64,000 bases of DNA, taken from the NCBI GenBank assembly GCA_035506295.1, contig DATJPR010000189.1, forward strand, positions 991 to 64,990. Direction: 5' to 3'. Positions 6,375 to 25,689 of this stretch are shown here, one piece after another. How positions within the stretch are numbered: the first letter of the stretch is position 1; each line of letters begins with the position of its first letter. The position numbers and the translations under genes are program-made. The notes beneath the pieces are model-generated. The model saw only the letters and a list, made by a program, of their open reading frames with translations. It made no database searches and had not been told where the DNA came from. The DNA comes from Bacteroidota bacterium (GTDB lineage Bacteria; Bacteroidota; Ignavibacteria; UBA10030; UBA6906).

Positions 6375-6404
6375 TCAACGCACCGATCGGAGCTCTCAAC
6401 AGGC

Positions 6405-7478
6405 ATGCTCATGAAATCTCCCCGCAGATTGTTGAATCGCATCGTAGTCATCGGAGGCTCCCTCCTCCTCGTGTTGGCCGGACTTGATGTGGTGTGGGAC
6501 ACCGCTTCGCCGCAAACGACGTGTGCGTCCTGCCACGAGATCGAAAGCTCATCGGCGGTCTGGGCGATGAGCGGCCACCGATCGTTCGGCTGCAAGGAGT
6601 GCCACGGCACGGCGTTCAGCAACGGGCTCCATAGCGTTCTTGAGAAAGGAAGCATGGTGGTCCACCACTTCACCGGCACCGCAGAGCAGGACGTGCGCCT
6701 CGACGAATCCCAGGTCGTGGAGATGATGGACAACTGCAAGAGGTGTCACGGCATGGAATACGCCAAATGGACGTCCGGCGGTCACTCCGCGACCTATGCG
6801 GCGATCTTTCTCAACGAAAAGCATAACGCCCGGGAGCAGCCGAACGCCGATTGCTTGCGGTGTCATGGGATGTATTTCGAGGGGACCATTCAGGACCTCG
6901 TTACGCCGGTCAGCACCAAAGGCCCATGGACGATCAAAACTCCCGGCGAGGCCCCGCGCCCTGCCATCCCTTGCCTCTCCTGCCACCAGATCCATCGACG
7001 GGGAACGCCCGCTGTAGCCCCGGACTATGCCGATCCCAAGAAGATTTTCTACGCGACGCCTACCGATTCGACGAACGTGCTCTATTACTATCGCTACGAA
7101 AAGACCAGCATCGAAGTGTCAGCGCTACCGGTGGTGACCGTTTACGACGGAGGAAAGGCAGTGAAGGGATCGACGGATCCACGGGAACGGGTCTGCTTGC
7201 AGTGTCACGCGCCGAACGCGTTTCATGCGGCGGGGACGGACGACGACAGAACACCACGCGGTGTGCATGAGGGGATCAGTTGCCTGGCATGCCACGACAG
7301 CCATAGCAACAGCGCGCGGCAGAGCTGCATCCGGTGCCACCCGGCGATTTCCAACTGCGGTTTGGATGTGACGAAGATGAATACGACGTTTGCCGACGGT
7401 AAGAGTCCGCACAATATCCATTTTGTGCGGTGCGAGGATTGCCACACGAAGGGGGTCCCGCCCAGGAAACGCCGGTAA
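6405..7478 (+). CDS. Membrane-anchored nine-haem c-type cytochrome (NapC/NirT-like N-terminus)
   Basis: One N-terminal TM helix (IVVIGGSLLLVLAGLDVVW) followed by nine CXXCH motifs: CASCH, CKECH, CKRCH, CLRCH, CLSCH, CLQCH, CLACH, CIRCH, CEDCH. Confidence 0.85.
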   Translation: MLMKSPRRLLNRIVVIGGSLLLVLAGLDVVWDTASPQTTCASCHEIESSSAVWAMSGHRSFGCKECHGTAFSNGLHSVLEKGSMVVHHFTGTAEQDVRLDESQVVEMMDNCKRCHGMEYAKWTSGGHSATYAAIFLNEKHNAREQPNADCLRCHGMYFEGTIQDLVTPVSTKGPWTIKTPGEAPRPAIPCLSCHQIHRRGTPAVAPDYADPKKIFYATPTDSTNVLYYYRYEKTSIEVSALPVVTVYDGGKAVKGSTDPRERVCLQCHAPNAFHAAGTDDDRTPRGVHEGISCLACHDSHSNSARQSCIRCHPAISNCGLDVTKMNTTFADGKSPHNIHFVRCEDCHTKGVPPRKRR

Positions 7479-7479
7479 T

Positions 7480-10400
7480 TCAGCCTGGGAATTCGATCTG
7501 GAACGAAGTCCCGCCTGTTCTCTCCAGCCTGATCGTCCCCGAAATCTGTTCGGTCAGGGATACAATCAGCGTCATTCCCATCGACCGCATCTCGCGGAAA
7601 TCCTTGTCGACAGGAAATCCCTTCCCATCGTCGCTGACGCGGAGCCGGATCAGCTCCGGGCCACCCCGTGAGAGGGTGACCGTCACCGATCCTTCCCGTC
7701 CGTCCGAAAATCCGTGTTTGAGCGCGTTGGTGACAAGCTCGTTGACGATCAGGCCGCAAGGGATCGCCGTGTCGATCTGCAGGCGGATGGGTTCGACCTG
7801 CGGCACGATGCTCACACCGCCCACGCCGAACGACCGACGGAGGTCTCTGGTCACCGCCTTGATATATTCGCCGAAGTCGACACTGGAAAGATTATCGGCC
7901 TGATACAGCTTTTCGTGGATGAGCGCCATGGCGCGGACACGCTGCTGGCTTTCGCCCAACAGTCCCCGGAGCTTCTGGTCCTGGACTTCCCCCGCCTGCA
8001 GGCTGAGCAGACTCGAGACCACCTGAAGGTTGTTCTTCACGCGATGGTGGATCTCCTTGAGCAACACCTCTTTCTCATGGAGCGACACCTTCACCAGTTC
8101 CTCCGCGCGCTTCCGCTCCGTGATGTCGATCGCGACGCCCAGCATCTGATCGGCCTTCCCTGATTCCGACACGATCGGGATCTTGATGACCTGCTTCCAG
8201 TGTTTCTCGCCCGTGCTGTCCGTGAACTCTTCCTCCGGATCGAACTTCTCCTTGAGGGTGTCCATGACCTGGAGGTCGTCCTGCCGGAACTTGTTCACCT
8301 GGTCCTTGTTGCTGTTGAAATCCGCGTCGGTCTTGCCGACGAGGTCCTCCGCCTCAGCCCCGTACTCGGATGCCAGGGCGCGATTCGCGAGCGTGAATCG
8401 TCCTTCCCGGTCCTTCGCGAAAATGAAACTGGGGTTAAGATCGATGATTGTTCGCAGAAACGATCGCTGGCTCTGCAATTCTTTCGTGCGTTGTTGCACC
8501 AGCTCTTCCAGTTGACGCCCGCGTTGCTTTAACGTCTTCACTCTCAACCGGAAGGCACCCGCGATGACGAGCGCCCCGGCGAACACGCAGAGGCCGTAGA
8601 ACCAGATGGACTGGATGAACCGGGGAGCGACGGTAAACTCGAGGCTCGCCCCCTGCTCATTCCACACGCCGTCATTGTTGCAGGCGATCACGCGGAAGGT
8701 GTAGCGATCCGGACGCAACCCGGTGTAATAGGCAACACGACGGGTATCGGCATTGACCCAGTCCCGGTCGTACCCTTCGAGCCTATACTTGAAATGCACC
8801 CTGGTCGGAACAAGGAGACTGAGTGCTGTATAATGAATCTCGAATTTGTCACCTCCCGGCGGTATCGCGATGGCGCCGTTGAGAGGCACGTCGTGTTCGT
8901 CGACAACAAGATTCTCAATGAGCACCGGTGGAGGGATCGTATTCGTCTTCAGGGTCTTCGGGTCGATGACCACCGCGCCCTTCTTCGTGGGGAACCACAA
9001 CCGGCCGTCCTGCGCCTTCCACCCTGCCGGTTGCCAGAGATTGAAACACTCATCCGTCTTCATCCCGTCGGCGGTTTCGAAGACACGGGTATGAAACGAC
9101 GTAATGCGCTTCGCGGCGAAATCGTCCAGTTCCTTTCGGCTCACAAGGCCGATCCCTCTCGGGCTGCTCAACCAGAGGTCGCCGTTGTCGTCCGCCAACG
9201 CACAATCGATCTCATTGGTGAAGAGGCCGTCGCGAGTTGTATGGGGAATGAACTTGCCACTCATATATCGCGTCACACCGGCGTGAGGCGAGGTGAACCA
9301 GAGAGATCCGTGGTGATCATCAAGGATCGAATTCACGAAGACGTCCACCAGGCCGTCGGAGGTGCTGAAGCTCTGCATCTCCCCGTTCTCAATCCTCAAA
9401 AGGCCGTTTGACGTCCCGATCCACAGAACGCCGTCATCTCCGCAGTACATCGACGAAACATATTCCGTGGACGTGTACGGTCCGCTCTTGAGAAGGAACG
9501 GAGACAGACGACCGTCCCTGAACCTCCGGAGGCCGATCTCATCAATATAGATGAGAAGTCCTCCCTGGTCTTCGCCGATTGCGGTGATCCACCGGTTCGG
9601 CATTCCGCCCGCGGTATCGTACCGGGTGATGCGGGCGTTGTCGATCTTCTCTAACAAACCTGTTTGCCCGATCCAGATCGACCCGTCTTTGGAGAGGAAT
9701 GCCGGCCCCACCGAGGTCTTGAGGACCGTGCTCTTTCCATTGGTCAGATGCGTGACCAAGGAGGAAACATCGCTGAGGAAGTACATGCTGCCGTCGGGGG
9801 CCTGAAGAATGCTGGAGACATGATCGCTGGCGAGACCCTCCTTTGTCGTAAAGGGGGTGATCGGAACATCTTTGAGCCGGTCGAGCCCCTCGGAGGTGCC
9901 GATCCAGAGACTCCCTTCCCGGTCTTCCAGAAGAGACGACACGTTGTTGCCGGTAAGACCGTCCACGGCAGTAAACGACGTCCATCGTCCATTCAGCAGC
10001 CGATTCAACCCACCGCTGTTCGTTCCCACCCAGAGATTACCGTCGCGGTCCTCGCATATGGCCGTGACATACGAATCGGTCATCCCTTCGGAGGTGGAGT
10101 ACGCGCGGAAAGAATTTCCGTCATAGCAGAACAACCCGTTGAACGTACCGATCCAGATTCTCCCCTGATGGTCGACATACACCGACGTTGTCACCTGATT
10201 CCGGGTGCCAGCAGTGATGGGCACCTCCCGGGCTTCCCGCCCGTTTTCGAAAACGCGCAGGCCCCCATACGTCCCGACCCATAGTCGCCCCGCACGATCT
10301 TCCGCGAGTGAACTGATGTACTTCGGTTCAATGGGGATCGATGTGAATTCGCCGTTACTGAATCTGTACAGTCCCGATGATGTGCCGAGCCAGACATGTC

Positions 10401-10854
10401 CGTCTTGTCGCTCACACAGCGCGAGCGAATTCCTCGCCATAATTCCCTCGGCCTGCCCGTAGCGCCGTAGCCGGCCGTCCTTGAGGTAGCTCAACCAACT
10501 GTTGGCTGTTCCGATCCAGAGACTTCCGTCGTGCCCCTCGCAAAGCGAATAAATGGTTTCAGGGTTGTCTGCGTTCGATGTGTCTGTGGGAATGCGGGTG
10601 AACTGGTAGCCGTCGAACCGGAACAGTCCCGCGGTGGTGCCGAACCACAGGTAGCCGTCATGCGTCTGGAGGGAGACATGGACCCCGTTTGCAGGCAATC
10701 CGTTCTGGCGAAGCCAAACGTCATGGCCGTATTGGCTGGCCGATTTCAGAGGGTCAAGCGCCCAGGCGTTGAACGAGGGGAAAAAGAGATGAAAAAGAAA
10801 TACAGCAACGATTGCCCGGGAAATACCCAGCGTGCTGCCTGCACGTGCATCCAT
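7480..10854 (-). CDS. Sensor histidine kinase with periplasmic two-component-regulator beta-propeller repeats + Y_Y_Y domain, TM, PAS, HisKA_2-type kinase core
   Basis: Repeated LW(I/V)GT...GL propeller motifs and Y_Y_Y signature FKYRLEGYDRDWV...YTFRV. A TM segment is followed by PAS and the H-box EIHHRVKNNLQVVSSLL, then an ATPase domain. The tracked ORF starts at TTG 10923. I prefer ATG 10854 (MDARAGSTLGISRAIVAVFLF...NAWA), which gives a signal-like N-terminus. Confidence 0.85.
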   Translation of the reverse strand: MDARAGSTLGISRAIVAVFLFHLFFPSFNAWALDPLKSASQYGHDVWLRQNGLPANGVHVSLQTHDGYLWFGTTAGLFRFDGYQFTRIPTDTSNADNPETIYSLCEGHDGSLWIGTANSWLSYLKDGRLRRYGQAEGIMARNSLALCERQDGHVWLGTSSGLYRFSNGEFTSIPIEPKYISSLAEDRAGRLWVGTYGGLRVFENGREAREVPITAGTRNQVTTSVYVDHQGRIWIGTFNGLFCYDGNSFRAYSTSEGMTDSYVTAICEDRDGNLWVGTNSGGLNRLLNGRWTSFTAVDGLTGNNVSSLLEDREGSLWIGTSEGLDRLKDVPITPFTTKEGLASDHVSSILQAPDGSMYFLSDVSSLVTHLTNGKSTVLKTSVGPAFLSKDGSIWIGQTGLLEKIDNARITRYDTAGGMPNRWITAIGEDQGGLLIYIDEIGLRRFRDGRLSPFLLKSGPYTSTEYVSSMYCGDDGVLWIGTSNGLLRIENGEMQSFSTSDGLVDVFVNSILDDHHGSLWFTSPHAGVTRYMSGKFIPHTTRDGLFTNEIDCALADDNGDLWLSSPRGIGLVSRKELDDFAAKRITSFHTRVFETADGMKTDECFNLWQPAGWKAQDGRLWFPTKKGAVVIDPKTLKTNTIPPPVLIENLVVDEHDVPLNGAIAIPPGGDKFEIHYTALSLLVPTRVHFKYRLEGYDRDWVNADTRRVAYYTGLRPDRYTFRVIACNNDGVWNEQGASLEFTVAPRFIQSIWFYGLCVFAGALVIAGAFRLRVKTLKQRGRQLEELVQQRTKELQSQRSFLRTIIDLNPSFIFAKDREGRFTLANRALASEYGAEAEDLVGKTDADFNSNKDQVNKFRQDDLQVMDTLKEKFDPEEEFTDSTGEKHWKQVIKIPIVSESGKADQMLGVAIDITERKRAEELVKVSLHEKEVLLKEIHHRVKNNLQVVSSLLSLQAGEVQDQKLRGLLGESQQRVRAMALIHEKLYQADNLSSVDFGEYIKAVTRDLRRSFGVGGVSIVPQVEPIRLQIDTAIPCGLIVNELVTNALKHGFSDGREGSVTVTLSRGGPELIRLRVSDDGKGFPVDKDFREMRSMGMTLIVSLTEQISGTIRLERTGGTSFQIEFPG

Positions 10855-11147
10855 GAAGCACCTTGTCGACTGAACTTCGTCCGCGGCCGACGGCGATGTT
10901 CTGCCGAGCCGCATTTGAGACAATCAATGACCCCCCCTCTTGGGTAGTGCAACAAACGTGCCTCGGGTCTGGATCCTTTGCCACTAACAATACCCACAAT
11001 TTAAGGCGAAAATGGCACCTTTCTTTGTGCCGGAAGGTTTTGGTGAACCGGCATGTTTGGCATTCAGGTTAAAATTCCCGCTCGCAAGAACTTAGATCCC
11101 TCCTCCGGGCCAGTGATCGTGCAACCCGACCTTGTGGACGACCGTAC

Positions 11148-13125: not shown

Positions 13126-14373
13126 CTACACCCACCCTCGCAGTTTGCATGCCTGTGCCACGCGGGCCACTGCCACAACCATGGCGGCCATTCTCGGATG
13201 GACCTTTTTTTCCCGCACTGCGTCCTGGACGGTTCTGTACGACTTTGCGAGCCGGGCGTCCAGCCGCTCATGCACGGTGTGTTCATCCCAGAAATACGAA
13301 TAGCTGTCCTGGACGATCTCGAAGTACGATACGGTCACGCCGCCGGCGCTCGCGAGAATGTCGGGAATGACATGGATCCCTTTTTTGTGAAGGATCATGT
13401 CCGCCTCCGGCGTCGTGGGTCCGTTTGCCAGCTCGCAGATCACCCGGGCCTTGATCACATCGGCATTGTCTTTGGTAATGGAATTCTCGAGCGCGGCCGG
13501 ATACAGGATCTCAACATCCAGTTCGAGCAGGGACTCCCGCTGAATGGGCGTTGACCCGGGGAAGTTCAGGACGGAACCTGTCTTCAGCTTGTGCATCACC
13601 AGCTCCTTCGGATCCAATCCGGACGGGCAATAGATGGCGCCCCGGGAATCGCTGACCGCAATCAATCTCCCTCCCCCCAGGATCTCCTGGTGCAGGAGGG
13701 CTGCCCGCTGCCCCGCGTTGCCGAACCCCTGGATCGCGTAGTTGCGAGTCGGATCGAACCCGTGCATGGCACATGCCTCGCGCACGGCGATGACTCCCCC
13801 ACGGGCGGTCGCGTCCCGGCGGCCTTCCGTTCCGCCGACCTGCTGCGGCTTGTCCGTCATGACCCCCGGATGGTGCCCTCGCGTCATGGTTTCGTACTCG
13901 TCCATCATCCACGCCATCGTTTGCGGATTCGTATACACATCGGGAGCCGGGATGTCGCGGTCTTCGCCGATGAGTTCCGATAGCCCGCGAACATACTCGC
14001 GCGATAGCGCCTCCAACTCGCGTTCAGACATCTCTTTCGGATCGCAGCGGATCCCACCCTTGGCCCCTCCGAGCGGCAGGTCCATCACCGCCGTTTTCCA
14101 GGTCATCCACGAGGCAAGGGCCCTGATCGTATCGATGGTTTCATCGGGATGAAAGCGGATTCCTCCTTTCGCCGGTCCCCGGGCATGATTGTGCTGGACC
14201 CGATACGCGTGAAAGATCCTGGCTCTCCCGGAGTCCATCTTCACGTGCAGGGTAAATGAGAACTCCCGCTGGGGCCACCGCAGGAGCTCGATCGTCGCTT
14301 CGTCGAGGTGAAGCAATCGGGCGGCCTCCGTGACATGTTGCTGGGCGACGGCGAATGAATTGTAGGATTCCAT
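13126..14373 (-). CDS. gdh: Glutamate dehydrogenase, ~415-aa hexameric class (Glu/Leu/Phe/Val dehydrogenase family)
   Basis: PAKGGIRFHP, the catalytic-Lys motif LPLGGAKGGIRCDP and the dinucleotide fold IQGFGNAG. Length is 415 aa. Confidence 0.9.
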   Translation of the reverse strand: MESYNSFAVAQQHVTEAARLLHLDEATIELLRWPQREFSFTLHVKMDSGRARIFHAYRVQHNHARGPAKGGIRFHPDETIDTIRALASWMTWKTAVMDLPLGGAKGGIRCDPKEMSERELEALSREYVRGLSELIGEDRDIPAPDVYTNPQTMAWMMDEYETMTRGHHPGVMTDKPQQVGGTEGRRDATARGGVIAVREACAMHGFDPTRNYAIQGFGNAGQRAALLHQEILGGGRLIAVSDSRGAIYCPSGLDPKELVMHKLKTGSVLNFPGSTPIQRESLLELDVEILYPAALENSITKDNADVIKARVICELANGPTTPEADMILHKKGIHVIPDILASAGGVTVSYFEIVQDSYSYFWDEHTVHERLDARLAKSYRTVQDAVREKKVHPRMAAMVVAVARVAQACKLRGWV

Positions 14374-14376
14374 AGA

Positions 14377-14586
14377 TCAGTGGCCCGATGGTGGTGGTTT
14401 GATCCCTGACGGCGGGGTCTTCTGTTCTTCGTCGTCGACATCAAGAATGATCCGGTACCAGCAGTTGCGACACATGAGAGCCCGATCGACGCTCAGCAGA
14501 ACCTGTTGCCACGGGCTCAGCTTGCGCCCGCAATGAGGGCAGGCATCATAGACCCGGCGGTGCTGTGTGCGTTCATCGTCTTCCAT
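14377..14586 (-). CDS. Small (69 aa) zinc-ribbon-like protein
   Basis: Two CXXC pairs (CPHCGRK ... CRNCWYR). The ATG overlaps the 3' end of the upstream gene by 14 nt, and the stop lies 3 nt before the gdh ATG. No family recognised. Confidence 0.4.
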   Translation of the reverse strand: MEDDERTQHRRVYDACPHCGRKLSPWQQVLLSVDRALMCRNCWYRIILDVDDEEQKTPPSGIKPPPSGH

Positions 14587-17500
14587 GATTGCTCCCCGGT
14601 TTGAGCACGATGCCGATGCCTTGATGTCCGTTGATCTTGATTGTCAATGGTCTCTCACACCGGACACGGCGGGTAAATGCAAGAGCCTCGTACGGCTCCT
14701 GCGCGAGGAGCCAGTCCCAGTCGACGAACCCCTGGGTGTCATCGGACCCAATGGAGAAGTAGCCGACCATGAATGAGGTGATATTCTGGAAGAAGTGGGA
14801 TCCCTGGGACGGGGCGACCGAGAGTTCTTTGAAGCTCGCTTCCACGATGGCCTTCGCCCCTGCGATTTGCTCCCATGTGACCGGGATCCCGAGCCAGGGA
14901 TCAAGCGATCCCCAACGTCCCAGTCCGACAAGAAGGTAGGGGCGGTGTTCGGCGATTAACTCGCGGTTGAACCGGCTGACTTCCTGGGCAATCTCACGGC
15001 TCTTAGCCCTTTCGAACAGCCTATAGTCCACGACGACAATGTCGCGGATGTCTTCGATCAGGCCATGTCCCAAAACCTGGGAGCTCCTGCAAACGACATC
15101 GCGAGGATCCACCACGCCGACCTCAAGTTCCTCCGGCTCGCGTTGCACGACCAGCGGCCGCATCTGCAGAAGGGCAAACTCCCTGGGTTGACCCTGCGGA
15201 ACCGACATCCGCACGGCAAACTCGATTTCGACCGGTGTCCCCATTCCCCACGTCCCCATGTCGAGGAGGAGGTCGATGATGTCCGCAATCGGGAATACCT
15301 TGTGCTTCAGGACCGGGCTGAAAGTGACCACGCGAATGCCGGTTCTGGAAAGCCCGTCCGTGATGGTGTCGTTGTCAGAAGAGAATGTCGAGCCGACGAA
15401 ACGCAATGGACCGTCCTGTTCCGCCACCTCGAGCGGAAACCGTTTCACCAGCACATCGTGAGTCTCAAACCCGGGATCGGTGGCCGCCGCGAGATCCAGG
15501 GCGAAGAAATCCCGCTGACTGGTGTTGATCGACTCCTCGGTGGTGTAGAATTGAATGAGATCGGTAGGGTACCGCGGGCAAAAGCGTACGGTGTTGCCGC
15601 CGTCCACCACCATCTTCCCGAGGCCGAGGGCGGCAGAGACGATACCGTCCGCGGGTTTTGCCGGCGCGTACGGATAGAAGTTGTAGGACTTTGCGACCCC
15701 CGAGAAATCAGGATAGAACCGCTCGTCATGGCGTGTGCCGGCCATGCGTTGCACGATCACCGCCATCTTTTCCTCTTCGAGGCGGTACGAAGTCACTCCG
15801 ATATACTCCTTCGCACTCTGATAAAATGTTGACGCGTACACGCGCTTGATGCTGCTCAGGAGATCGTTCAGCCGCACCAGCGGATTCTGATGCTGGTTCG
15901 GGATCATGTACGTTTCATACACACCGGCGAATGGATGATATTGCGAATCCTCGAGGAGCGAGGAGGAGCGGACCGCCAGCGGAGTACGGATGATGTCAAG
16001 AAATGCCGCGAGCTCGCCGAGGATCGACTCGGGGAAAGTTGGGGCTTCCAGAAAGCGTCTGGTGATCTCCCGATCGTCCGTACAGGTGATGGCAAATTCC
16101 CGCAATCCATTCGCATCCACGAACTCATCGAAGACATCGGTCCCGATCACGACCGCGCACGGGACGGAAATCACGATGTCCTCAAACCGGTCGCGCACAG
16201 CATAGTCGTTGATGATGGTGTTGACGAAGCCGAGGCCGCGGGCTTTCCCTCCGAGCGATCCCCCGCCGATCCTGGCAAAACTTGTCTCGGGGTCGAATGT
16301 CTCCTTGGCGAAATCCGCGATGATGCCGCGCTGTCGGATGTTCCGGTACTGGTGCAGCGATTGGATGAGGTCGCGACGGAGAGCGGCGGCATTCGGGTAG
16401 TCGCTGACCTTTCTCGGACGGAGCTGGTGCGCGAGCCAGAACTCCGTCCGTGCCTTCAACCAATTGGAAAAATGGTTCCGCTCTCCATGATAGACGATGC
16501 TTTCATCAGGAGCGATTTTGAGCTGCTCTTCGAGACTCCGAAGATCCGTCGCCCTGCCGACCTCCACACCTTCGGTGGTCCGGAAGACAAAATCGCCGAA
16601 GCTGAAATGCTCAACCATGAATTGCCGCAGCTCGTTCAAAAAGAGCGAGGAACCCTTCATGATGAAGGAAGCACCCAGAACATGTGCCTGCGCCCGATTT
16701 TCCTCCATGTTGGAGAGCATGAGGACCGCAAGATCCTGCTGATCGTCCTTTACACGGCGCACAAGTTCAAGCCCGGCCTCGGCGTCTTCTTTTCCCCTGT
16801 GCGGGAAGTCGATGTCCGTGATGATGCCGAGCAAATGCTCCTTGTACGTCTCGTAGTCTTTCCATGCCTCCTCGAATGTCGAAGAGAGGAGGATCTTCGG
16901 CCGCGCCCTCATCCTCAGGAATTTGTGCGTCAGGTTGATTCCTTCGGCGATCAGGCGCTGTGATTGTTTCAGGATTTCCGTGTAGATGCTCGGCAGGATC
17001 GACGAATAGTCCTTGATGTTGTCTTCGACGACCATGATCACCTGAACGCCGACCAGCTTCGTATCGTGTTCGACGTTCATGCGATCCTCGAGGGATTTGA
17101 CGATCGCAATGATGATCCGGAAGTCTCCCTGCCAGATCGCAATCAGATCAAAGACCGAAGTGTCTTTGGTGAGAAGGAGATCCTTCAGCTCCCGGTTGTC
17201 GTACGCGAGAAGCACCACCGGGATGTTCAGTCCCGACTGCTTCACGAGACGAGCAAAGTCCAGGGCGTGCATATCGTCGATGTGCAACGTCGTGATGATC
17301 AGATCAAACCGCCGCTCATCCTTGGCGAGCTGGATCGCATCCGCACCATTCGAGACGCGGGTCAACTCCGGAGAATGACTGAGGTTGAACCCTTCGTACT
17401 CGTTGCGGATCAGCTCGTACAGGCGCCCATCTTCCTCGAAGAGATACAGATCGTACAGGCTCGACACAAGGAGAATATCACGGATGCGGAGACGCATCAG

Positions 17501-17608
17501 GTTTTGAAAACCCTGGAAGCGGTTCCCGTAGCCGTGCTCCACCCAGAGCGGGTCGAACGTCTTCGAAGTATCAACGAAATCGATGGGCATGGGTGCAGGT
17601 TCGATCAC
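14573..17608 (-). CDS. Pseudo-receiver + receiver + PPDK_N (PEP/pyruvate-binding, ATP-grasp) domain protein, paralogue A
   Basis: ILLVSSLYD / DLIITT is a degenerate receiver. VMVVEDN ... GIITDIDFP ... LMLSN ... IMKGS is a canonical receiver. GGGSLGGKARGLGFVN and PLAVRSSSLLEDSQYHPFAGVYETY are PPDK_N hallmarks. The tracked start is GTG 17608; an alternative ATG lies at 17590. Confidence 0.8.
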   Translation of the reverse strand: MIEPAPMPIDFVDTSKTFDPLWVEHGYGNRFQGFQNLMRLRIRDILLVSSLYDLYLFEEDGRLYELIRNEYEGFNLSHSPELTRVSNGADAIQLAKDERRFDLIITTLHIDDMHALDFARLVKQSGLNIPVVLLAYDNRELKDLLLTKDTSVFDLIAIWQGDFRIIIAIVKSLEDRMNVEHDTKLVGVQVIMVVEDNIKDYSSILPSIYTEILKQSQRLIAEGINLTHKFLRMRARPKILLSSTFEEAWKDYETYKEHLLGIITDIDFPHRGKEDAEAGLELVRRVKDDQQDLAVLMLSNMEENRAQAHVLGASFIMKGSSLFLNELRQFMVEHFSFGDFVFRTTEGVEVGRATDLRSLEEQLKIAPDESIVYHGERNHFSNWLKARTEFWLAHQLRPRKVSDYPNAAALRRDLIQSLHQYRNIRQRGIIADFAKETFDPETSFARIGGGSLGGKARGLGFVNTIINDYAVRDRFEDIVISVPCAVVIGTDVFDEFVDANGLREFAITCTDDREITRRFLEAPTFPESILGELAAFLDIIRTPLAVRSSSLLEDSQYHPFAGVYETYMIPNQHQNPLVRLNDLLSSIKRVYASTFYQSAKEYIGVTSYRLEEEKMAVIVQRMAGTRHDERFYPDFSGVAKSYNFYPYAPAKPADGIVSAALGLGKMVVDGGNTVRFCPRYPTDLIQFYTTEESINTSQRDFFALDLAAATDPGFETHDVLVKRFPLEVAEQDGPLRFVGSTFSSDNDTITDGLSRTGIRVVTFSPVLKHKVFPIADIIDLLLDMGTWGMGTPVEIEFAVRMSVPQGQPREFALLQMRPLVVQREPEELEVGVVDPRDVVCRSSQVLGHGLIEDIRDIVVVDYRLFERAKSREIAQEVSRFNRELIAEHRPYLLVGLGRWGSLDPWLGIPVTWEQIAGAKAIVEASFKELSVAPSQGSHFFQNITSFMVGYFSIGSDDTQGFVDWDWLLAQEPYEALAFTRRVRCERPLTIKINGHQGIGIVLKPGSNHGRR

Positions 17609-17620
17609 GCGGTAAAGGAC

Positions 17621-18982
17621 TTAGTTGACCCCTTGATCCATCATGGCATCGGCGACTTTCAGGAACCCCCCGATGTTTGCTCCATTGACGTAATTGCCGG
17701 GCGTGCCGAACCGATCTGCCACCTCAACGCATGTCCGGTGAATGCTGCTCATGATCATCCGCAACCGGGTGTCGACTTCCTCCCGGGTCCACGGGAGACG
17801 CATGCTGTTTTGCGCCATCTCCAGCCCGGACACCGCGACGCCGCCGGCATTGGCCGCCTTCCCCGGACCATAGAGGATTTTGGCATCGAGAAATTGCTTT
17901 ACCCCTTCCAGGGCGGTCGGCATATTGGCGCCTTCAGCAACGACGTACACGCCGTTCTTAATGAGGTTGGCTGCGTCAATCCCGTTGACCTCATTCTGAG
18001 TCGCACTGGGGAAGGCGCAATCGGCCTTGTGGTTCCACAGCGGATTGTAATTCATTTTTGGATCCACGGGGGTGTACACAGAACCCTTGTATTTGGCCGC
18101 ATAGTCCTCGATTCTGCCGCGCCGCACGTTTTTCAGATCCATCACGAACGCCAGCTTGTCCTTCGTCACTCCCTGCTCATCATAAATATAACCGTTGGAA
18201 TCGGAAAGTGTGACCACCTTGCCGCCAAGATCGAGGATCTTTTCGACGGTGTACTGTGCGACATTTCCGCTTCCGGACACAAGGCAGATTTTTCCTTCAA
18301 GAGTCTGGCGTCTGGTCGACAGCATTTCGCTCGCGAAATACACACATCCGTACCCCGTCGCTTCGGGTCGAATAAGAGACCCTCCCCAATTGAGACCCTT
18401 TCCCGTGAGAACGCCGGTGAATTCGTTCCGAAGCTTCTTGTACCGCCCGAACAGGAAGCCGATTTCCCGCCCTCCGACGCCGATGTCGCCTGCGGGAACA
18501 TCCGTATCAGGCCCGATATGGCGGTGGAGCTCATCCATGAACGCCTGGCAGAACCGCATGATTTTCAAATCGCTCTTTCCCTTGGGGTCAAAATCCGACC
18601 CTCCCTTTCCGCCGCCCATGGGGAGAGTCGTCAGGCTGTTCTTGAACACCTGTTCGAAAGCGAGGAATTTCAAAATGCCAAGCGTCACCGAGGGATGGAA
18701 TCGGAGCCCGCCCTTATATGGTCCAATCGCGCTGTTCATCTCGATGCGGTAGCCACGGTTGATCTGAATCTCACCCTGATCGTCCACCCATGCGACGCGG
18801 AAGGTGATCACGCGCTCCGGCTCGATGATACGCTCGAGGATGCGCGCCGTCCGATATTCAGGATGGCGCTCGAGAAGGATCGCCAGTGATTCGGCCACTT
18901 CTTCGACAGCCTGATGGAACTCCGGTTGCGCGGGGTTCTTCGCTTTGACTTCTTCCATAAGATCACGAACATACGGTGACAT
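17621..18982 (-). CDS. gdhA: NADP-specific-type glutamate dehydrogenase (GdhA class, ~450 aa)
   Basis: YKGGLRFHPSV, PMGGGKGGSDFDPKGKS and VSGSGNVAQY. I chose ATG 18982 (MSPYVRDLMEEVKAKNP) because AGGAGGA lies 4 nt upstream; the tracked ORF extends to 19030. Confidence 0.9.
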   Translation of the reverse strand: MSPYVRDLMEEVKAKNPAQPEFHQAVEEVAESLAILLERHPEYRTARILERIIEPERVITFRVAWVDDQGEIQINRGYRIEMNSAIGPYKGGLRFHPSVTLGILKFLAFEQVFKNSLTTLPMGGGKGGSDFDPKGKSDLKIMRFCQAFMDELHRHIGPDTDVPAGDIGVGGREIGFLFGRYKKLRNEFTGVLTGKGLNWGGSLIRPEATGYGCVYFASEMLSTRRQTLEGKICLVSGSGNVAQYTVEKILDLGGKVVTLSDSNGYIYDEQGVTKDKLAFVMDLKNVRRGRIEDYAAKYKGSVYTPVDPKMNYNPLWNHKADCAFPSATQNEVNGIDAANLIKNGVYVVAEGANMPTALEGVKQFLDAKILYGPGKAANAGGVAVSGLEMAQNSMRLPWTREEVDTRLRMIMSSIHRTCVEVADRFGTPGNYVNGANIGGFLKVADAMMDQGVN

Positions 18983-19113
18983 GGTTCCTCCTGCGACGAA
19001 ATGTGCGGTTGGATTGGCCCGCGCGTCCACGCGTACGCGGGTCGCTGTGGAACGAGATGTGACGAACGGTGGTTGATGTGTTGGTCATTGCATTGAACGA
19101 CGTACGACAAGGT

Positions 19114-22110
19114 TCAGGGTTCAGGCTTCAGGATGACTCCTTTGTTCCGGTAGCCGTTGATCTTCACCGTCAGCGGACGCTGAAACTGCAGGTGGCGAGT
19201 ATAGTGCCCTTCTTCCGCCGTCCGGCATCCGCGCATCCACTCCCAGTCGATGCAACCCAGGGGCGGAGACTCGCTCACCGTGAAATACCCGATGCGAAAC
19301 GAGGTAATGTTCTGAAAGAAATGGGATCCCTGCGACGGAGTCACCGCAAGGTCTTTGAAGCCGGATTCCACGATGACACGGGCCCCTGAGATCTGCCCGT
19401 ACGTCACCGGGATCCCCAACCAGCGGTCGAGACTTCCCCACCGACCGACACCGATCAAGATGTACGGCCGCCCCGCTTTGACAAGACTCTCGTTGAACTC
19501 CGCAACTTCGTTTGCAACGACTTCACTTTTCCCCCGGTCGAATGTCTGGATGTCGACCACAACGAGATCGCGAAGCCCCGTAATCACCCCGTTGCCCAAG
19601 ACCTGCTCGCTCCGGACCAGGAGTGATGCAGCAGGAACGGACTCCACATCAAGCTCTTCCATCTCGAGACTCAAGACGAGCGGTCGGATTTGCAGCAGGG
19701 AAAATTCCTTCTTCTCGCCGGGCGCTGTGCTCAGGTTCGCCGCGAATTCGATCTCCACGTGGGTGCCCATTCCCCAATGACCGAGGTCAAGCACTGCCTC
19801 CATGATTTCCGGCAAGGGGAAGATCTTGTGTTTGAGAATAGGAGCGAAGGTGACGACACGTCTACCACTCCGTGCAATGCCATCGTATACCGAATCGTTC
19901 TCCCGGGAATAAGTGGATCCGACAAAGAGCAGTGTCTGGTCCCGTTCTGCTTTCTCGAGGTCATACGTCTTCACAAACGTCGCAGGGTCGTCGTTTCCCT
20001 GGAGGGCGAACGAACCGTTCAAATCGAGCGCCGCGAAATTCTGTTGAGCATTTTGAATGGTCTCCAGCGTGGAAAAGAACTGGAGGAGATGGCGCGGGTA
20101 CTTCGGACAGAAGCGCACGGTGTTCCCGCCTTCCACGACGGTCTTCCCCAGGCCAAGGGCCACCATGACGATGCCGTCATCCGATTTCTGTGGTGGGATG
20201 GGATAGAAGTTATATGACTTCGCAACGCCGGCGAACTCCGGGTAGAACGTTTCTCCGTGGGCCGATCCCACCATCCTCTGGATGATGACCGCCATCTTCT
20301 CTTCTTCGAGCCGGTAGGACGTGGCTGCCATGTACGCCTTCGCCTTTGTCGCAAAGGTTGAGGCGTAAACGAGTTTGATGCTGTCGAGGAGCTCCCGAAG
20401 CCTGACCGCGGGGTCAGGATGATTGTTCGGGATCATGAATGTATCGTAGACCCCTGCAAAGGGCTGGTACTGCGAATCTTCCAGGAGGCTGGACGACCGT
20501 ACGGCCAGGGGAACATGGACGATCTCGAGGAACATCCGGAGCTGTTCCAGAATATCGTGCGGGAAATACTCCGCACAGAGAAATTTCTTTTGCAGAGCAT
20601 GATCGTCCGTGCAACTCATGGCAAACGATTCAAGACTGTTCTGCGCGAGGAACCTGTCGAAGGCATCCGTCGCCACGACGATCGCCGACGGGACCTCGAT
20701 GCGCACGTCTTCAAATCGGCCCGCAACGCCGCTCTGGCTCATCAACAGATTCAGGAATCCGAGGCCGCGGGCCTTTCCACCCATCGACCCCGTTCCGACC
20801 CGGGCAAAGCTGTTCTTCACATCGAATGAATCCCGTTGGAATTCCGAGACCACACCTCGCTTGCGTGCCTCCCGGTAGGTGTTGAGGGCGCTCAGGAGAT
20901 CCCCGCGAAGATCCTCCACAGAGGCAAAGTCTTCCGGGCGCCTCGGTCGAAGGTGGTACGCCAGCGAGAATTCCGTCCTGGCCTTCAGCCAGTTCGAGAA
21001 GTGATTCTGTCGCGCGTGGAAGAGAATGCTCTCGCCCGGAACGATTCGGAGCTGCTCCGCCAATCCGGAAAGATCCCGCGCCCTGCCGACCTCCTCTCCT
21101 GTCGGCATCCGGAAAACAAAGTCCCCAAAGCCAAACCGCTCCAGCATGAATTGCCGGAGCTCATGCAGCAGGCGGGGAGACGTCTTCACAAGGAAGTCCG
21201 CATCGATCTCCTTTGCCCTCCCGGCAAACGCCGGATTGCTCGACTGGAGGAGGATAGGGATATCGGCGTGACGGGACCTCACGCGCACGGCGAAATGGAT
21301 TCCGCCCTCCGGATCGCGCCCCCCGTCCCGGAGAATGTCGATGTCGGAAATAATGGCGAGGATATAGTTCTCGTACTGCTCATAGAACCGCCACGCCTCT
21401 TCGTACGAACTACAAAAGAGGATTTTCGGCCGGGCTCGCTGACGCAGGTAACGGTGCGTGAGATTGACTCCTTCGGCGATGAGGCGGCGAGATTGGTTGA
21501 AGACTTCGGTGTAGATCAAAGGCAGGTAGAGCGAAGCGAAATTCACATTGTCTTCTACGAGGATGATCGACTGGACACCGACCGCCGTGGTGTCCTCGGC
21601 CACGTTCGCGCGGTCTTCGATCGACTTGATGATCGCCACGAGCAGGCGGTAGTCGCCTTTCCAGATAAATACCTGGTTGAAGACCGAAACGTCGGCGGCT
21701 TGCATGAGCTCCTTGCGTTCCTGGTTGTCATAGGCAAGAAGGACTATCGGCGTCTGCGGGGAGATCTGCCGGATCGCTGCGGCCAGACGGACAACGCGCA
21801 TGTCCTCGACATGGATCGTCGTGATCACAAGATCGAAATGCTCGCCGCTTCGAAGGAGATCCAGGGCCTCCCGGCCGCTGGTGAGGTTGGTGACTTCGGG
21901 GAGGTGACTGAGGTCAAGGGCCTGGAATTCGCGCCGGATGAGCTCGTGCAACTGCCCATCCTCTTCAAAGAGGTAGCTGTCGTACAGGCTCGAAACCAGA
22001 AGGATGTCTCTGATCTTGAAGCGGATCAGACGCTGTAGAGCCTTCAGGCGGCTGCCGTACAGATCCTCGTCGTCGGGATGGTGAATGCCACCCACGAGAG
22101 AAGGCTCCAT
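19114..22110 (-). CDS. Pseudo-receiver + receiver + PPDK_N (ATP-grasp) domain protein, paralogue B
   Basis: Same architecture and many identical blocks as 14573..17608 (IRDILLVSSLYD, LVEDN, ISDIDI, GGKARGLGF, PLAVRSSSLLEDSQYQPFAGVYDT, SQGSHFFQNITSF). ATG 22110 (MEPSLVGG...) is preceded by AAGGGAGAG and aligns with the N-terminus of paralogue A. The tracked ORF extends to 22320. Confidence 0.8.
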   Translation of the reverse strand: MEPSLVGGIHHPDDEDLYGSRLKALQRLIRFKIRDILLVSSLYDSYLFEEDGQLHELIRREFQALDLSHLPEVTNLTSGREALDLLRSGEHFDLVITTIHVEDMRVVRLAAAIRQISPQTPIVLLAYDNQERKELMQAADVSVFNQVFIWKGDYRLLVAIIKSIEDRANVAEDTTAVGVQSIILVEDNVNFASLYLPLIYTEVFNQSRRLIAEGVNLTHRYLRQRARPKILFCSSYEEAWRFYEQYENYILAIISDIDILRDGGRDPEGGIHFAVRVRSRHADIPILLQSSNPAFAGRAKEIDADFLVKTSPRLLHELRQFMLERFGFGDFVFRMPTGEEVGRARDLSGLAEQLRIVPGESILFHARQNHFSNWLKARTEFSLAYHLRPRRPEDFASVEDLRGDLLSALNTYREARKRGVVSEFQRDSFDVKNSFARVGTGSMGGKARGLGFLNLLMSQSGVAGRFEDVRIEVPSAIVVATDAFDRFLAQNSLESFAMSCTDDHALQKKFLCAEYFPHDILEQLRMFLEIVHVPLAVRSSSLLEDSQYQPFAGVYDTFMIPNNHPDPAVRLRELLDSIKLVYASTFATKAKAYMAATSYRLEEEKMAVIIQRMVGSAHGETFYPEFAGVAKSYNFYPIPPQKSDDGIVMVALGLGKTVVEGGNTVRFCPKYPRHLLQFFSTLETIQNAQQNFAALDLNGSFALQGNDDPATFVKTYDLEKAERDQTLLFVGSTYSRENDSVYDGIARSGRRVVTFAPILKHKIFPLPEIMEAVLDLGHWGMGTHVEIEFAANLSTAPGEKKEFSLLQIRPLVLSLEMEELDVESVPAASLLVRSEQVLGNGVITGLRDLVVVDIQTFDRGKSEVVANEVAEFNESLVKAGRPYILIGVGRWGSLDRWLGIPVTYGQISGARVIVESGFKDLAVTPSQGSHFFQNITSFRIGYFTVSESPPLGCIDWEWMRGCRTAEEGHYTRHLQFQRPLTVKINGYRNKGVILKPEP

Positions 22111-23242: not shown

Positions 23243-24088
23243 TCAGAAGACGAAGCTGCCCGTGAGCGTGACGCCGTACTGTTGCGTCCTGCTTGCGGGT
23301 TCGTAAATGTACGCGTACTGCTGCCCGAGGATCACTTCAGGAGAATTGTTGCTCTGGCCGATCGCAGAATATTCATACCAGAACGTCACGGCGAGCCCCC
23401 AAAAATCCCGCGACGTGTATTCCACTGGAAGCGCGACGTGCCATCCCACTTTGTTCCCAAGAGTGAGCGTCGGGCTGTCGAACTGCGGCAGCGCTATCGC
23501 AATCGACCCCGACACCATGATCCGGCAGGCTGCATCAAGCGCAAGGCTCCAGTGGCGATCGAAGGCTAGCCTGCACTTCAGGCCGACGGGAATGTAACTC
23601 CAGGAATACTCCTCGCGGTACCCCTGCAGATCGTTGTGGTTCGAGATATCCCGCCTCCAGAATCTATATCCGTAGCCGCTGTAAGGTGTGAGATCCAGAG
23701 AGGAGCCGCCAATCCGGTAGAACGTGAAGCCGGCGTCGACCTCGAACCGGGAAAACCAGTCGCTGGTATTCTCCGTGAAGTCCTTCGACTGACCATAGAA
23801 GTCAGTTTCATTCGATCCGTATTGCGTCCCGCTCGGGGAGAAATCCCACTGCGCCCGACCCCAGAGGGGCAAAGATTTCCCTCCGTCAAACTCATATCCA
23901 AATGCGACGCCGAACAGCCACCCGTTCTCTGTGCTCTTTCCAGGAGGGTCCCATTGTTCCTCGTAGTCGAACGAGTGAAGGATCATGGAGAGCGACAGCT
24001 TCTGCGTCGGAGAGGCCGGCGGAGACGGCGATGCGGCCAGCGCTATGCTGCAACTGAACAGAAGAAGGACGAGAGGAGAGCGTACCAT
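23243..24088 (-). CDS. Outer-membrane beta-barrel protein (unknown family)
   Basis: Signal peptide MVRSPLVLLLFSCSIALAA. Alternating aromatic/hydrophilic strand pattern rich in Y/W/G, with a C-terminal ...LTGSFVF ending in Phe. Confidence 0.5.
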   Translation of the reverse strand: MVRSPLVLLLFSCSIALAASPSPPASPTQKLSLSMILHSFDYEEQWDPPGKSTENGWLFGVAFGYEFDGGKSLPLWGRAQWDFSPSGTQYGSNETDFYGQSKDFTENTSDWFSRFEVDAGFTFYRIGGSSLDLTPYSGYGYRFWRRDISNHNDLQGYREEYSWSYIPVGLKCRLAFDRHWSLALDAACRIMVSGSIAIALPQFDSPTLTLGNKVGWHVALPVEYTSRDFWGLAVTFWYEYSAIGQSNNSPEVILGQQYAYIYEPASRTQQYGVTLTGSFVF

Positions 24089-24129
24089 GGTCTGACCCTC
24101 GATGATGGCGTGAGGAACAACAACACGGC

Positions 24130-25008
24130 TCAGCGGTGGGGGTTGCCCCGTGCGGGGTCCTGCTGGCGAAGGATTCTTCGAAGTTCAGACTCGACGAGGC
24201 GAAGGTCTTCGTCGAGGAAATGACGTGAGAACCTCCGGGCGCGGCGGACGTCATCGTCGTCGATGTCCCCGACCACCAGGTCCTGGTCGAACAATTTGGC
24301 AGCGACCTCATTCTCACCGTCAGGCGAGACGATTTCCGATCCGCCCCAGAAACTCACGCCATCTTCGATGCCGACGCGATTGCAGAACACGAGGAAGACC
24401 GACAGCAGACGGGCGAGAGCGCGGTGGTTTTCCCCGTTCGCGGTCGCGATCGCCGGAATGGCGCCGGGCCCTGCCACGCGCGTCGGGCTGGCAACGAGCG
24501 TGATGATGGTCGTCGCGCCGTCGGCGGCGAGCAGATACGGCAGGGAAAGGTGCCACAGGTCTTCGCAGATCAGGACACCGATGCGTCCGACCGACGTGTC
24601 GATGGCCTGCACGCTTCTGCCGGCGCTGAAGTAGCGAAGCTCTTCAAACATCCCGTATGTCGGCGGGTAGATCTTCCGGTGAACGGTCCGCATCGTCCCT
24701 CCCTCGATGAGGAAGGCCGAGTTGTAGATGCCATAATCCTCCCCTTCCGATATTCCTCCGACGAGGAGCGAGATCCCCTTGCTCAGATCGAGAAGCGGTG
24801 CAAGGCTTGACGGCGGACTGGACGGCCTGAAGCAGAGTTCCCAGTGCATGTCCTTGACCGAGTACCCCGTCAGACTGAGCTCCGGGAACACTGCGAGCTT
24901 TGCGCCCTGAGCACGCGCGCGCTCCGCGAACGCGGCGTGCGTCTCGACGTTCTTTGCAATATCGCCGAGGACAGGATCAATTTGTGCGAGGGCGAGACGG
25001 GTGGTCAT
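24130..25008 (-). CDS. Carbon-nitrogen hydrolase (nitrilase superfamily)
   Basis: Glu-Lys-Cys triad contexts: VFPELSLTGY, HRKIYPP, GVLICEDLWH. The ATG at 25008 overlaps the TGA of the receiver gene (ATGA). Confidence 0.8.
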   Translation of the reverse strand: MTTRLALAQIDPVLGDIAKNVETHAAFAERARAQGAKLAVFPELSLTGYSVKDMHWELCFRPSSPPSSLAPLLDLSKGISLLVGGISEGEDYGIYNSAFLIEGGTMRTVHRKIYPPTYGMFEELRYFSAGRSVQAIDTSVGRIGVLICEDLWHLSLPYLLAADGATTIITLVASPTRVAGPGAIPAIATANGENHRALARLLSVFLVFCNRVGIEDGVSFWGGSEIVSPDGENEVAAKLFDQDLVVGDIDDDDVRRARRFSRHFLDEDLRLVESELRRILRQQDPARGNPHR

Positions 25009-25685
25009 TCGGATAGATCGAACATACGGATGTCACGGATGTAGGGAATCGTCTTGTCGCTCTTGAGTTCCTTGAGCTGGGAGATCTTCTTCTCGATCCG
25101 CTGCAGGTTGTCTCTGATGATCACCAGATACGACGTGAGTCCGTCGTTGGTGTGCGCCTCCATGAGCTGGTTCACGCGGAGGGCCATCACGTCGAGGGGG
25201 CCGCGGAGATCCGTGGTCATCTTCCCCACCATTTCCTGGATCGCCTCGAGGCGCTTTCGTGTCACCTCCAGGCTCACCCGTTGTTCTTCGAGCCGTTGCT
25301 GCTCGATCACTTTCAGGATGGTCCCGGGGAGCACCGGCGTCGTTGCGTCCTCCTTCAGGAGATAGTCGGCCACCCCGAGCTTCAGCACTTCGACGGCAAG
25401 ATCGAAATCCTTGTTGACCGTAAGAAAGATGATCGGAACGTTGACACCCTGCGACCGAAGCGATTTGGTGATCTCCAACCCGTTCTGGCCGGGAAGAAAA
25501 TAGTCCATCAGGATCACGTCGAACGGGCCGTCGTTCCTGACTGCGGCTTCCGCGCTCACGCTGTCCCCGCGCCACGTCACGGTGAATTTCTGGGGTTGGT
25601 GCCTCCGGAGAAACACCTGCACCAGCGTGGCGAAATCGCGATTATCGTCGACCAGGAGAACCTTGATGGTGCTTGACGACTCCAT
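25005..25685 (-). CDS. Response-regulator receiver protein with C-terminal coiled-coil/degenerate DHp-like domain
   Basis: KVLLVDDN ... VILMDYFLPGQNG ... IIFLTV ... DYLLKE is a canonical receiver. The C-terminal MTTDLRGPLDVMALRVNQL resembles an H-box (xHELRTPL) without the His. No DNA-binding or ATPase domain was seen. Confidence 0.8.
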   Translation of the reverse strand: MESSSTIKVLLVDDNRDFATLVQVFLRRHQPQKFTVTWRGDSVSAEAAVRNDGPFDVILMDYFLPGQNGLEITKSLRSQGVNVPIIFLTVNKDFDLAVEVLKLGVADYLLKEDATTPVLPGTILKVIEQQRLEEQRVSLEVTRKRLEAIQEMVGKMTTDLRGPLDVMALRVNQLMEAHTNDGLTSYLVIIRDNLQRIEKKISQLKELKSDKTIPYIRDIRMFDLSE

Positions 25686-25689
25686 AGCC

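Follow-up and report, generated by a model that had tools for sequence, protein, structure and literature searches.

Among described proteins, the closest counterparts of the two proteins analysed here are the dikinases built on the PPDK_N ATP-grasp module, namely phosphoenolpyruvate (PEP) synthase, pyruvate phosphate dikinase (PPDK), rifampin phosphotransferase (RPH) and PigC/RedH. To our knowledge the substrates of these enzymes, and of the glucan water dikinases, are small molecules or glucans and in no case proteins, and all characterised PPDK_N enzymes use a phosphohistidine swivel domain. The two proteins, which we call paralogues A and B, share with the dikinases the ATP-grasp motifs GGK, VRSS..ED, VQ and E-x-E...Q-x-R. 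They are encoded in a 64,000-nucleotide (nt) stretch of contig DATJPR010000189.1 (positions 991–64,990, forward strand) from a Bacteroidota bacterium assigned to the Ignavibacteria, referred to below as the window. Here they form part of a five-gene cluster with two glutamate dehydrogenases (GDHs) of 453 and 415 amino acid residues (aa), GDH453 and GDH415, and a small zinc-ribbon protein, ZnR. We conclude that the family of receiver–PPDK_N proteins (REC-PPDK_N) to which A and B belong is very probably tied in function to GDH.

The evidence that carries this conclusion is gene neighbourhood. Eighty genome loci, from Ignavibacteriota, Bacteroidota, Calditrichota, Acidobacteriota and KSB1, were picked by their similarity to A and by no other criterion, and their neighbours were scored by tblastn with the window proteins. 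Immediately upstream, and in the same orientation, there is a GDH gene in 62 of the 74 assessable loci; downstream of A there is one in 48 of 64, almost always preceded by ZnR, which itself lies downstream of A in 46 of 64. Where both flanks could be assessed, an adjacent GDH gene is present in 58 of 62 loci and missing from four. All-against-all clustering of the 1,047 open reading frames (ORFs) of at least 90 aa within ±10 kb of the 80 loci yields only two widely shared families, REC-PPDK_N itself (79 loci) and GDH (72 loci), the next cluster reaching 14 loci. GDHs account for 144 of the 1,047 ORFs; genomes typically carry one to three gdh genes. This greatly exceeds what chance would give, and the genomic association of A and B with GDH is among the strongest obtainable from synteny. 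A functional link between this protein family and GDH had been proposed in the initial annotation of the window, with a neighbourhood survey as its test; the survey is strongly positive and supports the link.

The association extends to distant lineages, five of the seven informative ones lying beside gdh, and the gdh-linked distant relatives are overall 33–41% identical. The proteins P0256 (33% identity), P0246 and P0238 (34–35%) and P0126, from Planctomycetota, each have a gdh neighbour, and the gene for P0183 is divergent from a GDH→paralogue pair. In a Bacteroidales-rich clade (about 40% identity), recovered by a metagenome scan seeded on 30–40%-identical members, 19 of the 53 assessable loci have a gdh gene immediately upstream (divergently oriented in 17), and 10 more have one within 6 kb. 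On a Bacteroides finegoldii-like contig gdh is the convergent neighbour, and on a Phocaeicola plebeius contig it is the divergent one. Since the adjacency persists across at least six phyla, with cultured gut Bacteroidales among the carriers, and through changes of orientation, it points to function rather than to operon hitch-hiking.

Each paralogue had been described in the initial annotation as standing upstream of its own GDH gene. This is literally the case for B and GDH453, but the register is probably wrong. In 50 of 64 cases the gene before an A-type gene is an orthologue of GDH453, with 75% identity or more, and B-type genes are preceded in 11 of 15 by a distinct GdhA paralogue, GdhA', which is 60–75%, mostly 66–70%, identical to GDH453. 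In relatives, the complete form of the cluster is GdhA'-B-GdhA-A-ZnR-GDH415, as for example in loci L001, L003, L004, L009, L011, L018, L033, L039 and L073; some relatives have 2.3 kb between B and GdhA. The counts of upstream genes, together with the tight ZnR–GDH415 pair, define two modules, GdhA'→B and GdhA→A→ZnR→GDH415. GdhA' is missing from the window, where no GDH remnant lies upstream of B, and GDH453 is probably not the dedicated partner of B despite their order on the DNA. One metagenome contig (L181, 1962–4988) has its A-type gene split into ORFs of 224 and 752 aa in an otherwise intact GdhA-A-ZnR-GDH415 arrangement, the result of either a frameshift or an assembly error.

The features of the cluster are collected in Table 1. 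The five ORFs, their coordinates and their gaps are as first annotated, and the translations agree with the coordinates. The intergenic gaps in the order B/GDH453/A/ZnR/GDH415 are 131, 12, −14 and 3 nt. In the public gene call for A (P0001) the start is placed six codons later, at ATG 17590, and the gap between GDH453 and A is then 30 nt. The ORF of B is extendable to GTG 22320; its ATG at 22110 has a Shine–Dalgarno sequence, GGGAGAG, and a similar GGAGGA element stands before the ATG of GDH453. The end of a convergent gene is reached 13 nt past GDH415. A single transcription unit of five genes is plausible from this layout; the likeliest place for an internal promoter would be the 131-nt gap between B and GDH453, since relatives carry inserts of up to 2.3 kb at that point. 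Scans of the cluster for sigma-70 promoters and terminators gave results at or below shuffle expectation and were uninformative, the minus-strand terminator-like sites all lying inside coding sequence, and an Rfam scan of the cluster at gathering thresholds gave no riboswitch or leader RNA. Elsewhere in the window, a S-adenosylmethionine (SAM) riboswitch, RF00162, is found at 32845–32958 on the plus strand (65.4 bits against a gathering threshold of 44.4), about 75 nt upstream of an ORF at 33034–34173 (+).

Table 1. Genes of the cluster and predicted domains of paralogue A, in window coordinates
Feature	Position	Strand	Basis
Paralogue B, 998 aa	19114-22110	minus	ORF translation, Pfam
GDH453, GdhA-type NADP-specific glutamate dehydrogenase (hexameric, ~450-aa class), 453 aa	17621-18982	minus	NF006929, ELFV domains
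Paralogue A, 1011 aa (1005 aa from ATG 17590)	14573-17608	minus	Translation, Pfam, AlphaFold2 model
A receiver 1 (REC1), pseudo-receiver, residues ~40-180	17069-17491	minus	Pfam Response_reg
A receiver 2 (REC2), predicted phospho-acceptor receiver, residues ~188-335	16604-17047	minus	Response_reg, PleD fold match
A DUF5752-like linker, residues ~336-430, FGDFVFR ... NHFSNWLKARTEF	16319-16603	minus	DUF5752 (PF19027), sub-threshold
A PPDK_N-type ATP-grasp nucleotide-binding domain, residues ~445-826	15131-16276	minus	Pfam PPDK_N
A C-terminal alpha/beta domain, unknown fold family, residues 828-1008	14585-15127	minus	GRWG, E923, PSQGSHFFQN
ZnR, zinc-ribbon protein, 69 aa	14377-14586	minus	Conserved core in orthologues
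GDH415, glutamate dehydrogenase, archaeal/Bacillus-like class, 415 aa	13126-14373	minus	ELFV domains

Paralogues A and B align over 979 aa with only one gap, at 55% identity and 73% similarity, which bears out a paralogy first read by eye from stretches with more than half of the residues identical, and every shared block quoted at that time is present. A Pfam search, the check then suggested, finds Response_reg and PPDK_N in both proteins and PEP-utilizers and PEP-utilizers_C in neither. The proposed receiver plus PPDK_N architecture holds for both domain types but was incomplete, since each protein has two receivers, of which only the second is predicted to be phosphorylatable, and an additional C-terminal domain. 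The PPDK_N (PF01326) matches score 126–129 bits against a cutoff of 27, with E-values of 1.9e-36 for A, where profile positions 3–316 of 328 are covered, and 3.6e-37 for B, in which Response_reg (2.5e-8) and DUF5752 (2.8e-4) are also matched. An AlphaFold2 (AF2) model of full-length A has a mean predicted local distance difference test (pLDDT) score of 76. A Foldseek comparison of this model with known structures matched its ATP-grasp to that of RPH (5hv2) at E 1e-9 and its receivers to the tandem pair in PleD at E 5e-7, over some 320 aligned columns; PhoB and DivK were also matched. The architecture of A and B includes no DNA-binding domain.

Residue conservation was assessed in 118 full-length sequences, comprising 116 representatives of 50%-identity clusters together with A and B. 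In REC1 of A, the equivalents of CheY D12, D13 and D57 are S49, S50 and T107, and across the set these positions hold S/A/C, S/T and M/T/F and are never acidic; REC1 is, to judge from this pattern, a pseudo-receiver without a phospho-acceptor, degenerate throughout the family. REC2 has an insertion of about 30 aa in helix 1 and, scanned alone, gives a weak match to Response_reg (E 8.7e-4). Its residues E195, D196, D265, S/T299 and K318 are conserved in 113, 101, 106, 112 and 110 of the 118 members, respectively, and it is predicted to be a true receiver, with Asp265 as the phospho-acceptor in A, and the only one of the two able to be phosphorylated. This plan is reminiscent of PleD, in which two receivers, one catalytic and one a degenerate adaptor, precede an enzyme domain; in A and B the order is reversed, with the pseudo-receiver first and the aspartate in the second, and the output is an ATP-grasp rather than a GGDEF domain. 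The linker that follows scores 16.6 bits in A and 20.8 bits in B against DUF5752 (PF19027), below the cutoff of 23, with the relative P0183 above it at 25.5; W383 of the linker is present in 118/118 members and H374 in 104/118.

In the ATP-grasp domain, G453, G454, K455, R547, S548, S549, E553, D554, Q620, E796, Q815 and R817 are each found in at least 113 of the 118 members. With its nucleotide- and Mg-binding residues kept, the ATP-grasp of A and B is intact and is predicted to be catalytically competent. The best solved structural relative of this domain in A is Listeria RPH (5hv2/5fbs), which resembles A and B further in having no PEP/pyruvate TIM barrel and in carrying an extra domain at the C-terminus. 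Otherwise A and B differ from the dikinases. They have no swivel domain detectable by hidden Markov model or fold, and they carry tandem receivers and a DUF5752-like segment at the N-terminus and a family-specific alpha/beta domain at the C-terminus. Automatic names given to family members include 'CheY-like chemotaxis protein', 'histidine kinase', 'PEP/pyruvate-binding domain-containing protein' and 'phosphoenolpyruvate synthase', and these, with the PPDK_N match, might suggest ordinary or degenerate PEP synthases or PPDKs whose position beside gdh is incidental. We find this scarcely credible. A and B have one of the three defining domains of the dikinases and lack two, with neither the PEP-utilizers swivel nor the PEP-utilizers_C TIM barrel found by Pfam or fold; PEP-utilizers_C (PF02896) gives no match, A ending about 180 aa after the ATP-grasp. 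The NCBIfam scores are far under every equivalog cutoff, those for PEP synthase being 44–64 bits against cutoffs of 598–883, and the adjacency to gdh is conserved across phyla. The domain tests refute this reading, and neither A nor B is a full-length PEP synthase or PPDK.

The C-terminal domain, of about 180 aa, is a newly defined, conserved one for which no structural relative has been solved. Its invariant motifs are GRWG, E and S-x-G-S/T-H-F; residues G897, R898, E923, S934, G936, H938 and F939 are each present in 114–116 of the 118 members, and G900 is also counted among the invariant residues. Modelled alone by AF2 from a diverse alignment, the domain has a pLDDT of 95.8 and a predicted template modelling (pTM) score of 0.92. 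A Foldseek search with this model gave no significant fold match in the PDB (best E 0.02, template modelling score 0.30), and the domain has no match in Pfam or in a sequence-profile search against the PDB. A divergent PEP-utilizers phosphohistidine swivel domain was considered, on account of the PSQGSHFFQN segment with its G-S/T-H at a helix N-terminus, and rejected. The swivel family PF00391, with its catalytic phospho-His in GG-x-TSH-AA, gives no match even at E 10 on the isolated C-terminus, and the fold match is missing although the PDB contains structures of PPDK, PEPS, EI and RPH. The motif QGSHFFQNITSF (A residues 935–946, window 14768–14803), the most conserved of the domain, has a pLDDT below 50 in the full-length model and of at least 88 in the domain-only model; the low value may indicate a mobile or interface loop, or may stem from the shallower full-length alignment. 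The cluster of Arg, Glu, Ser and His residues is catalytic-looking, and H938 is, on conservation alone, a candidate catalytic residue.

The same Arg, Glu, Ser and His residues and the glycine-rich loops of this domain would suit a site for a small ligand or phosphate. They bear on a reading in which A and B are signal-gated small-molecule enzymes at the glutamate/2-oxoglutarate node, or makers of a signalling metabolite or nucleotide, and lie beside gdh because they share a pathway or regulon with it. This would accord with the known substrates of PPDK_N enzymes, which are not proteins, and with the partial NCBIfam matches. We nevertheless consider it unlikely. The substrate-binding domains of the known dikinases are absent from A and B, no further metabolic enzyme that might use the product is conserved nearby, and a system with one regulator for each GdhA paralogue is more readily accounted for by protein–protein specificity than by a shared metabolite.

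The two dehydrogenases of the window both carry ELFV_dehydrog_N and ELFV_dehydrog domains and are only 29% identical to one another, in keeping with the earlier statement that they are not recent copies. The assignment of GDH453 to the GdhA class is likewise upheld, as its score against NF006929, the equivalog for NADP-specific GDH, is 743 bits (cutoff 536); it carries the motifs KGGLRFHP and GGGKGGSDFDPKGKS. For GDH415 the E-values are 1.2e-56 (ELFV_dehydrog_N) and 1.4e-67 (ELFV_dehydrog), and the best of the archaeal/Bacillus-type models is NF040817, where its 538 bits fall short of the equivalog cutoff (750). GDH415 is best described as a predicted GDH-family enzyme of the ~415-aa archaeal/Bacillus-like class. 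A fourth GDH-like class, of about 470–500 aa, 38–47% identical to GDH415 and with a divergent C-terminus, recurs beside the cluster (L016 15007–16443, minus; L022 6804–8222, plus; L050 4704–6215, plus), so that some loci hold as many as four genes for ELFV-family dehydrogenases in a span of 12 kb.

ZnR represents a new family of small zinc-ribbon proteins, comprising 882 clusters with no Pfam domain. Its core, CPHCGxxLSPWQQVLLSVDRALxCKNCWYRIILD, is kept in 54 orthologues, with tails that vary in length and sequence. In both the A-selected and the ZnR-selected loci ZnR, wherever seen, is flanked by a family member and a 415-aa GDH, and all 10 of the ZnR-selected places that were looked up have this arrangement; many relatives' loci have A without ZnR. 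In the ZnR-selected places L175–L184 a B12-binding radical SAM gene (about 395 aa; e.g. L175 6520–7707) stands directly after GDH415, and an ORF cluster with the same type of radical SAM gene (L048 14532–15722) occurs in 7 of the 80 genome loci and is absent from the window.

With its small size, its acidic tail rich in Lys and its place beside an ATP-grasp protein in a setting of glutamate metabolism, ZnR recalls the LysW/LysX amino-group carrier, and glutamate might by analogy be ligated to this tail. The variable tail of ZnR led us to reject this analogy, the EDWGE-type tail of LysW being conserved. PPDK_N is moreover a different ATP-grasp subfamily from RimK/LysX, the downstream carrier-dependent enzymes are all absent and, as noted, A often occurs without ZnR; an arrangement of this kind is highly improbable.

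The gene for ZnR shares 14 nt with the end of A and stops 3 nt short of GDH415, the ZnR–GDH415 gaps in relatives being 3–5 nt. Coupling as tight as this would be expected if A and B were non-covalent regulatory subunits or energy-charge sensors, in which binding of ATP or ADP and phosphorylation of REC2 alter the binding to the GDH hexamer, with ZnR a small inhibitor or adaptor like IF7 and IF17, the factors that inactivate glutamine synthetase in cyanobacteria. Control of nitrogen-assimilation enzymes by small proteins has precedents, and no phospho-carrier domain could be identified in A or B. The near-invariance of all catalytic-type ATP-grasp residues, among them the Mg-binding E796 and Q815 and the R547/S548/S549/E553/D554 block, suggests turnover rather than binding alone, and we regard the non-covalent scheme as quite unlikely.

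From the domain architecture, the residue conservation and the linkage to gdh, all of which are observed, we infer a regulator that has GDH for its target. Specifically, on the likeliest reading, A and B would be two-component-gated, ATP-dependent post-translational regulators acting on the GDH protein, a proposal for and against which we see the balance as about even. An unlinked histidine kinase would phosphorylate REC2, at D265 in A. REC1 and REC2 would together gate the PPDK_N-type ATP-grasp, which would work with the Arg/Glu/Ser/His cluster of the family-specific C-terminal domain. Phosphorylation of REC2 would switch on an ATP-dependent action on the neighbouring GDH, either covalent modification by phosphoryl or nucleotidyl transfer or ATP-driven binding, and GDH activity would thus be tuned post-translationally to nitrogen and carbon status. 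Each paralogue would be dedicated to the one GdhA-type enzyme encoded just upstream of it, and ZnR would be a co-translated partner or adaptor that brings GDH415 under the same control.

Several observations weigh against this proposal or limit the linkage on which it is built. The link between A/B and GDH is one of gene neighbourhood, and no Rosetta-stone fusion to GDH was found by Pfam among six unusually long or divergent representatives of the family. The 80 loci come from related genomes, so that the counts are not independent events. Among the distant relatives P0216 and the Muribaculaceae protein P0275 are without a gdh neighbour, and 42 of the 80 Bacteroidales-clade metagenome loci have no gdh within the fetched DNA. 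No histidine kinase is conserved within ±10 kb of the 80 loci, as judged by the clustering. Finally, the phosphohistidine swivel domain was not found in the C-terminus of A or B, which leaves a dikinase-type route of phosphotransfer unproven.

As to the source of the signal, a PAS-HisKA_3-HATPase kinase with a NarL/LuxR-type response regulator lies near the cluster in about 7–10 of the 80 loci. In L003 the kinase (5688–7133) and the regulator (7557–8189) are inside the insert between B and GdhA, and in L044 (4780–5853 and 5846–6481) they follow a gene for a PPDK_N–nucleotidyltransferase protein described below. This in-cluster kinase is a candidate partner of REC2. In the window itself two very large sensor kinases flank the cluster, within 23243–30567 and at 7480–10923, both on the minus strand. 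The first (25690–30567) is a protein of 1625 aa with PAS/GAF/HisKA/HATPase domains, followed by a 226-aa receiver protein, a CN_hydrolase and an outer membrane protein (OMP) beta-barrel, and the second has 1147 aa with Reg_prop/Y_Y_Y/PAS/HisKA_2 domains. As neither is conserved beside relatives of A and B, neither can be put forward as the cognate kinase.

The PPDK_N–nucleotidyltransferase proteins form a sister family of about 1060–1085 aa, in which an unknown N-terminus is followed by PPDK_N, the C-terminal domain also seen in A and B, with the GRWG and G-T-HFFQ motifs, and an NTP_transf_2 nucleotidyltransferase. Their genes (L044 1488–4673, L084 8071–11295, L087 4187–6259, L168 3692–4087) adjoin gdh and/or REC-PPDK_N genes (L044, L084–L087, L168), and the presence of such a family beside gdh fits a theme of protein modification. 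Two long variants of REC-PPDK_N (1524–1557 aa), P0183 (L083 6001–10674) and P0220, have an N-terminal extension of about 560–590 aa without a Pfam domain; that of P0183 resembles in part the N-terminus of the sister family (36% identity over 127 aa).

In its most specific form the regulatory proposal becomes a covalent GDH-modification system, an equivalent of AceK or GlnE in which transfer would proceed by way of His938, Arg898 and Glu923 onto a specific GdhA hexamer, ZnR would be the adaptor for GDH415 and the nucleotidyltransferase sister family would supply a complementary or reverse activity. We offer this tentatively, as a possibility about which we are on balance doubtful. Reversible inactivation of GDH in vivo was reportedly seen in Bacteroides in old physiological studies, and a covalent modifier, if real, would be a molecular candidate for it.

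The REC-PPDK_N family is large, deeply conserved and uncharacterised. A word-indexed search with A was saturated, with 7,958 of the 8,000 scored candidates at E ≤ 1e-10, so that the family has at least 7,958 clusters at 90% identity; the best 120 of the matches are all about 1,000 aa long and 69–100% identical to A. Among 50%-identity representatives, searched exhaustively, 5,004 proteins match at E ≤ 1e-3 and 1,282 reach E ≤ 1e-30, and the full-length architecture is kept down to 33% identity. Close orthologues, 69–75% identical to A, come from genomes labelled Ignavibacteria and Bacteroidota. The labelled members as a whole are from Ignavibacteriota, Bacteroidota, Calditrichota, Acidobacteriota, KSB1, Planctomycetota and one metagenome-assembled genome labelled Thermoplasmatota, and cultured Bacteroidota that carry the family include P. 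plebeius and B. finegoldii (WP_007561130.1, WP_195589266.1), B. salyersiae and Paraprevotella clara. In B. thetaiotaomicron, where BT1970–BT1973 had been considered as a possible instance of the arrangement, BT1971 is a catalase. A full-text literature search, with subscription journals outside its coverage, yielded no functional description of the family, in agreement with the initial annotation, whose author knew of no characterised system like this. The only relevant item for the family is a remark in a census (PMC5847659).

GDH stands at the junction of carbon and nitrogen metabolism and is one of the main routes by which Bacteroidota and related groups, including dominant gut commensals, assimilate ammonium, and its post-translational control is poorly understood beyond a few model systems. 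As gdh is the sole conserved genomic partner of the family, the hypothesis is a concrete one, open to genetic tests in cultured Phocaeicola, Bacteroides and Paraprevotella. If GDH is the target, A and B would represent a novel regulator class for a textbook enzyme and a kind of output not seen before in two-component signalling. Three further items are defined by the analysis, namely the C-terminal domain, the ZnR family and the PPDK_N–nucleotidyltransferase sister family.

Among known systems with GDH at their centre, the GdhA–GdhB hetero-complex of Thermus thermophilus with its APRTh regulators has two GDH paralogues encoded with accessory regulatory proteins. The cluster in the window differs in that its accessory proteins are unrelated to these, its GDHs belong to different size classes and there is no sign of a hetero-hexamer. 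The proposed logic, that of a dedicated regulator for an enzyme at a branch point of carbon and nitrogen metabolism, is the same as in the pairs AceK/isocitrate dehydrogenase, GlnE/glutamine synthetase (GS), GarA/GDH in actinobacteria and IF7-IF17/GS in cyanobacteria. AceK controls isocitrate dehydrogenase, and GlnE controls GS. A and B have no sequence or fold homology to AceK, GlnE, GarA or IF7-IF17, and differ from them in being themselves two-component response regulators. The nucleotidyltransferase-bearing sister family beside gdh recalls, in turn, the logic of GlnE and GlnD.

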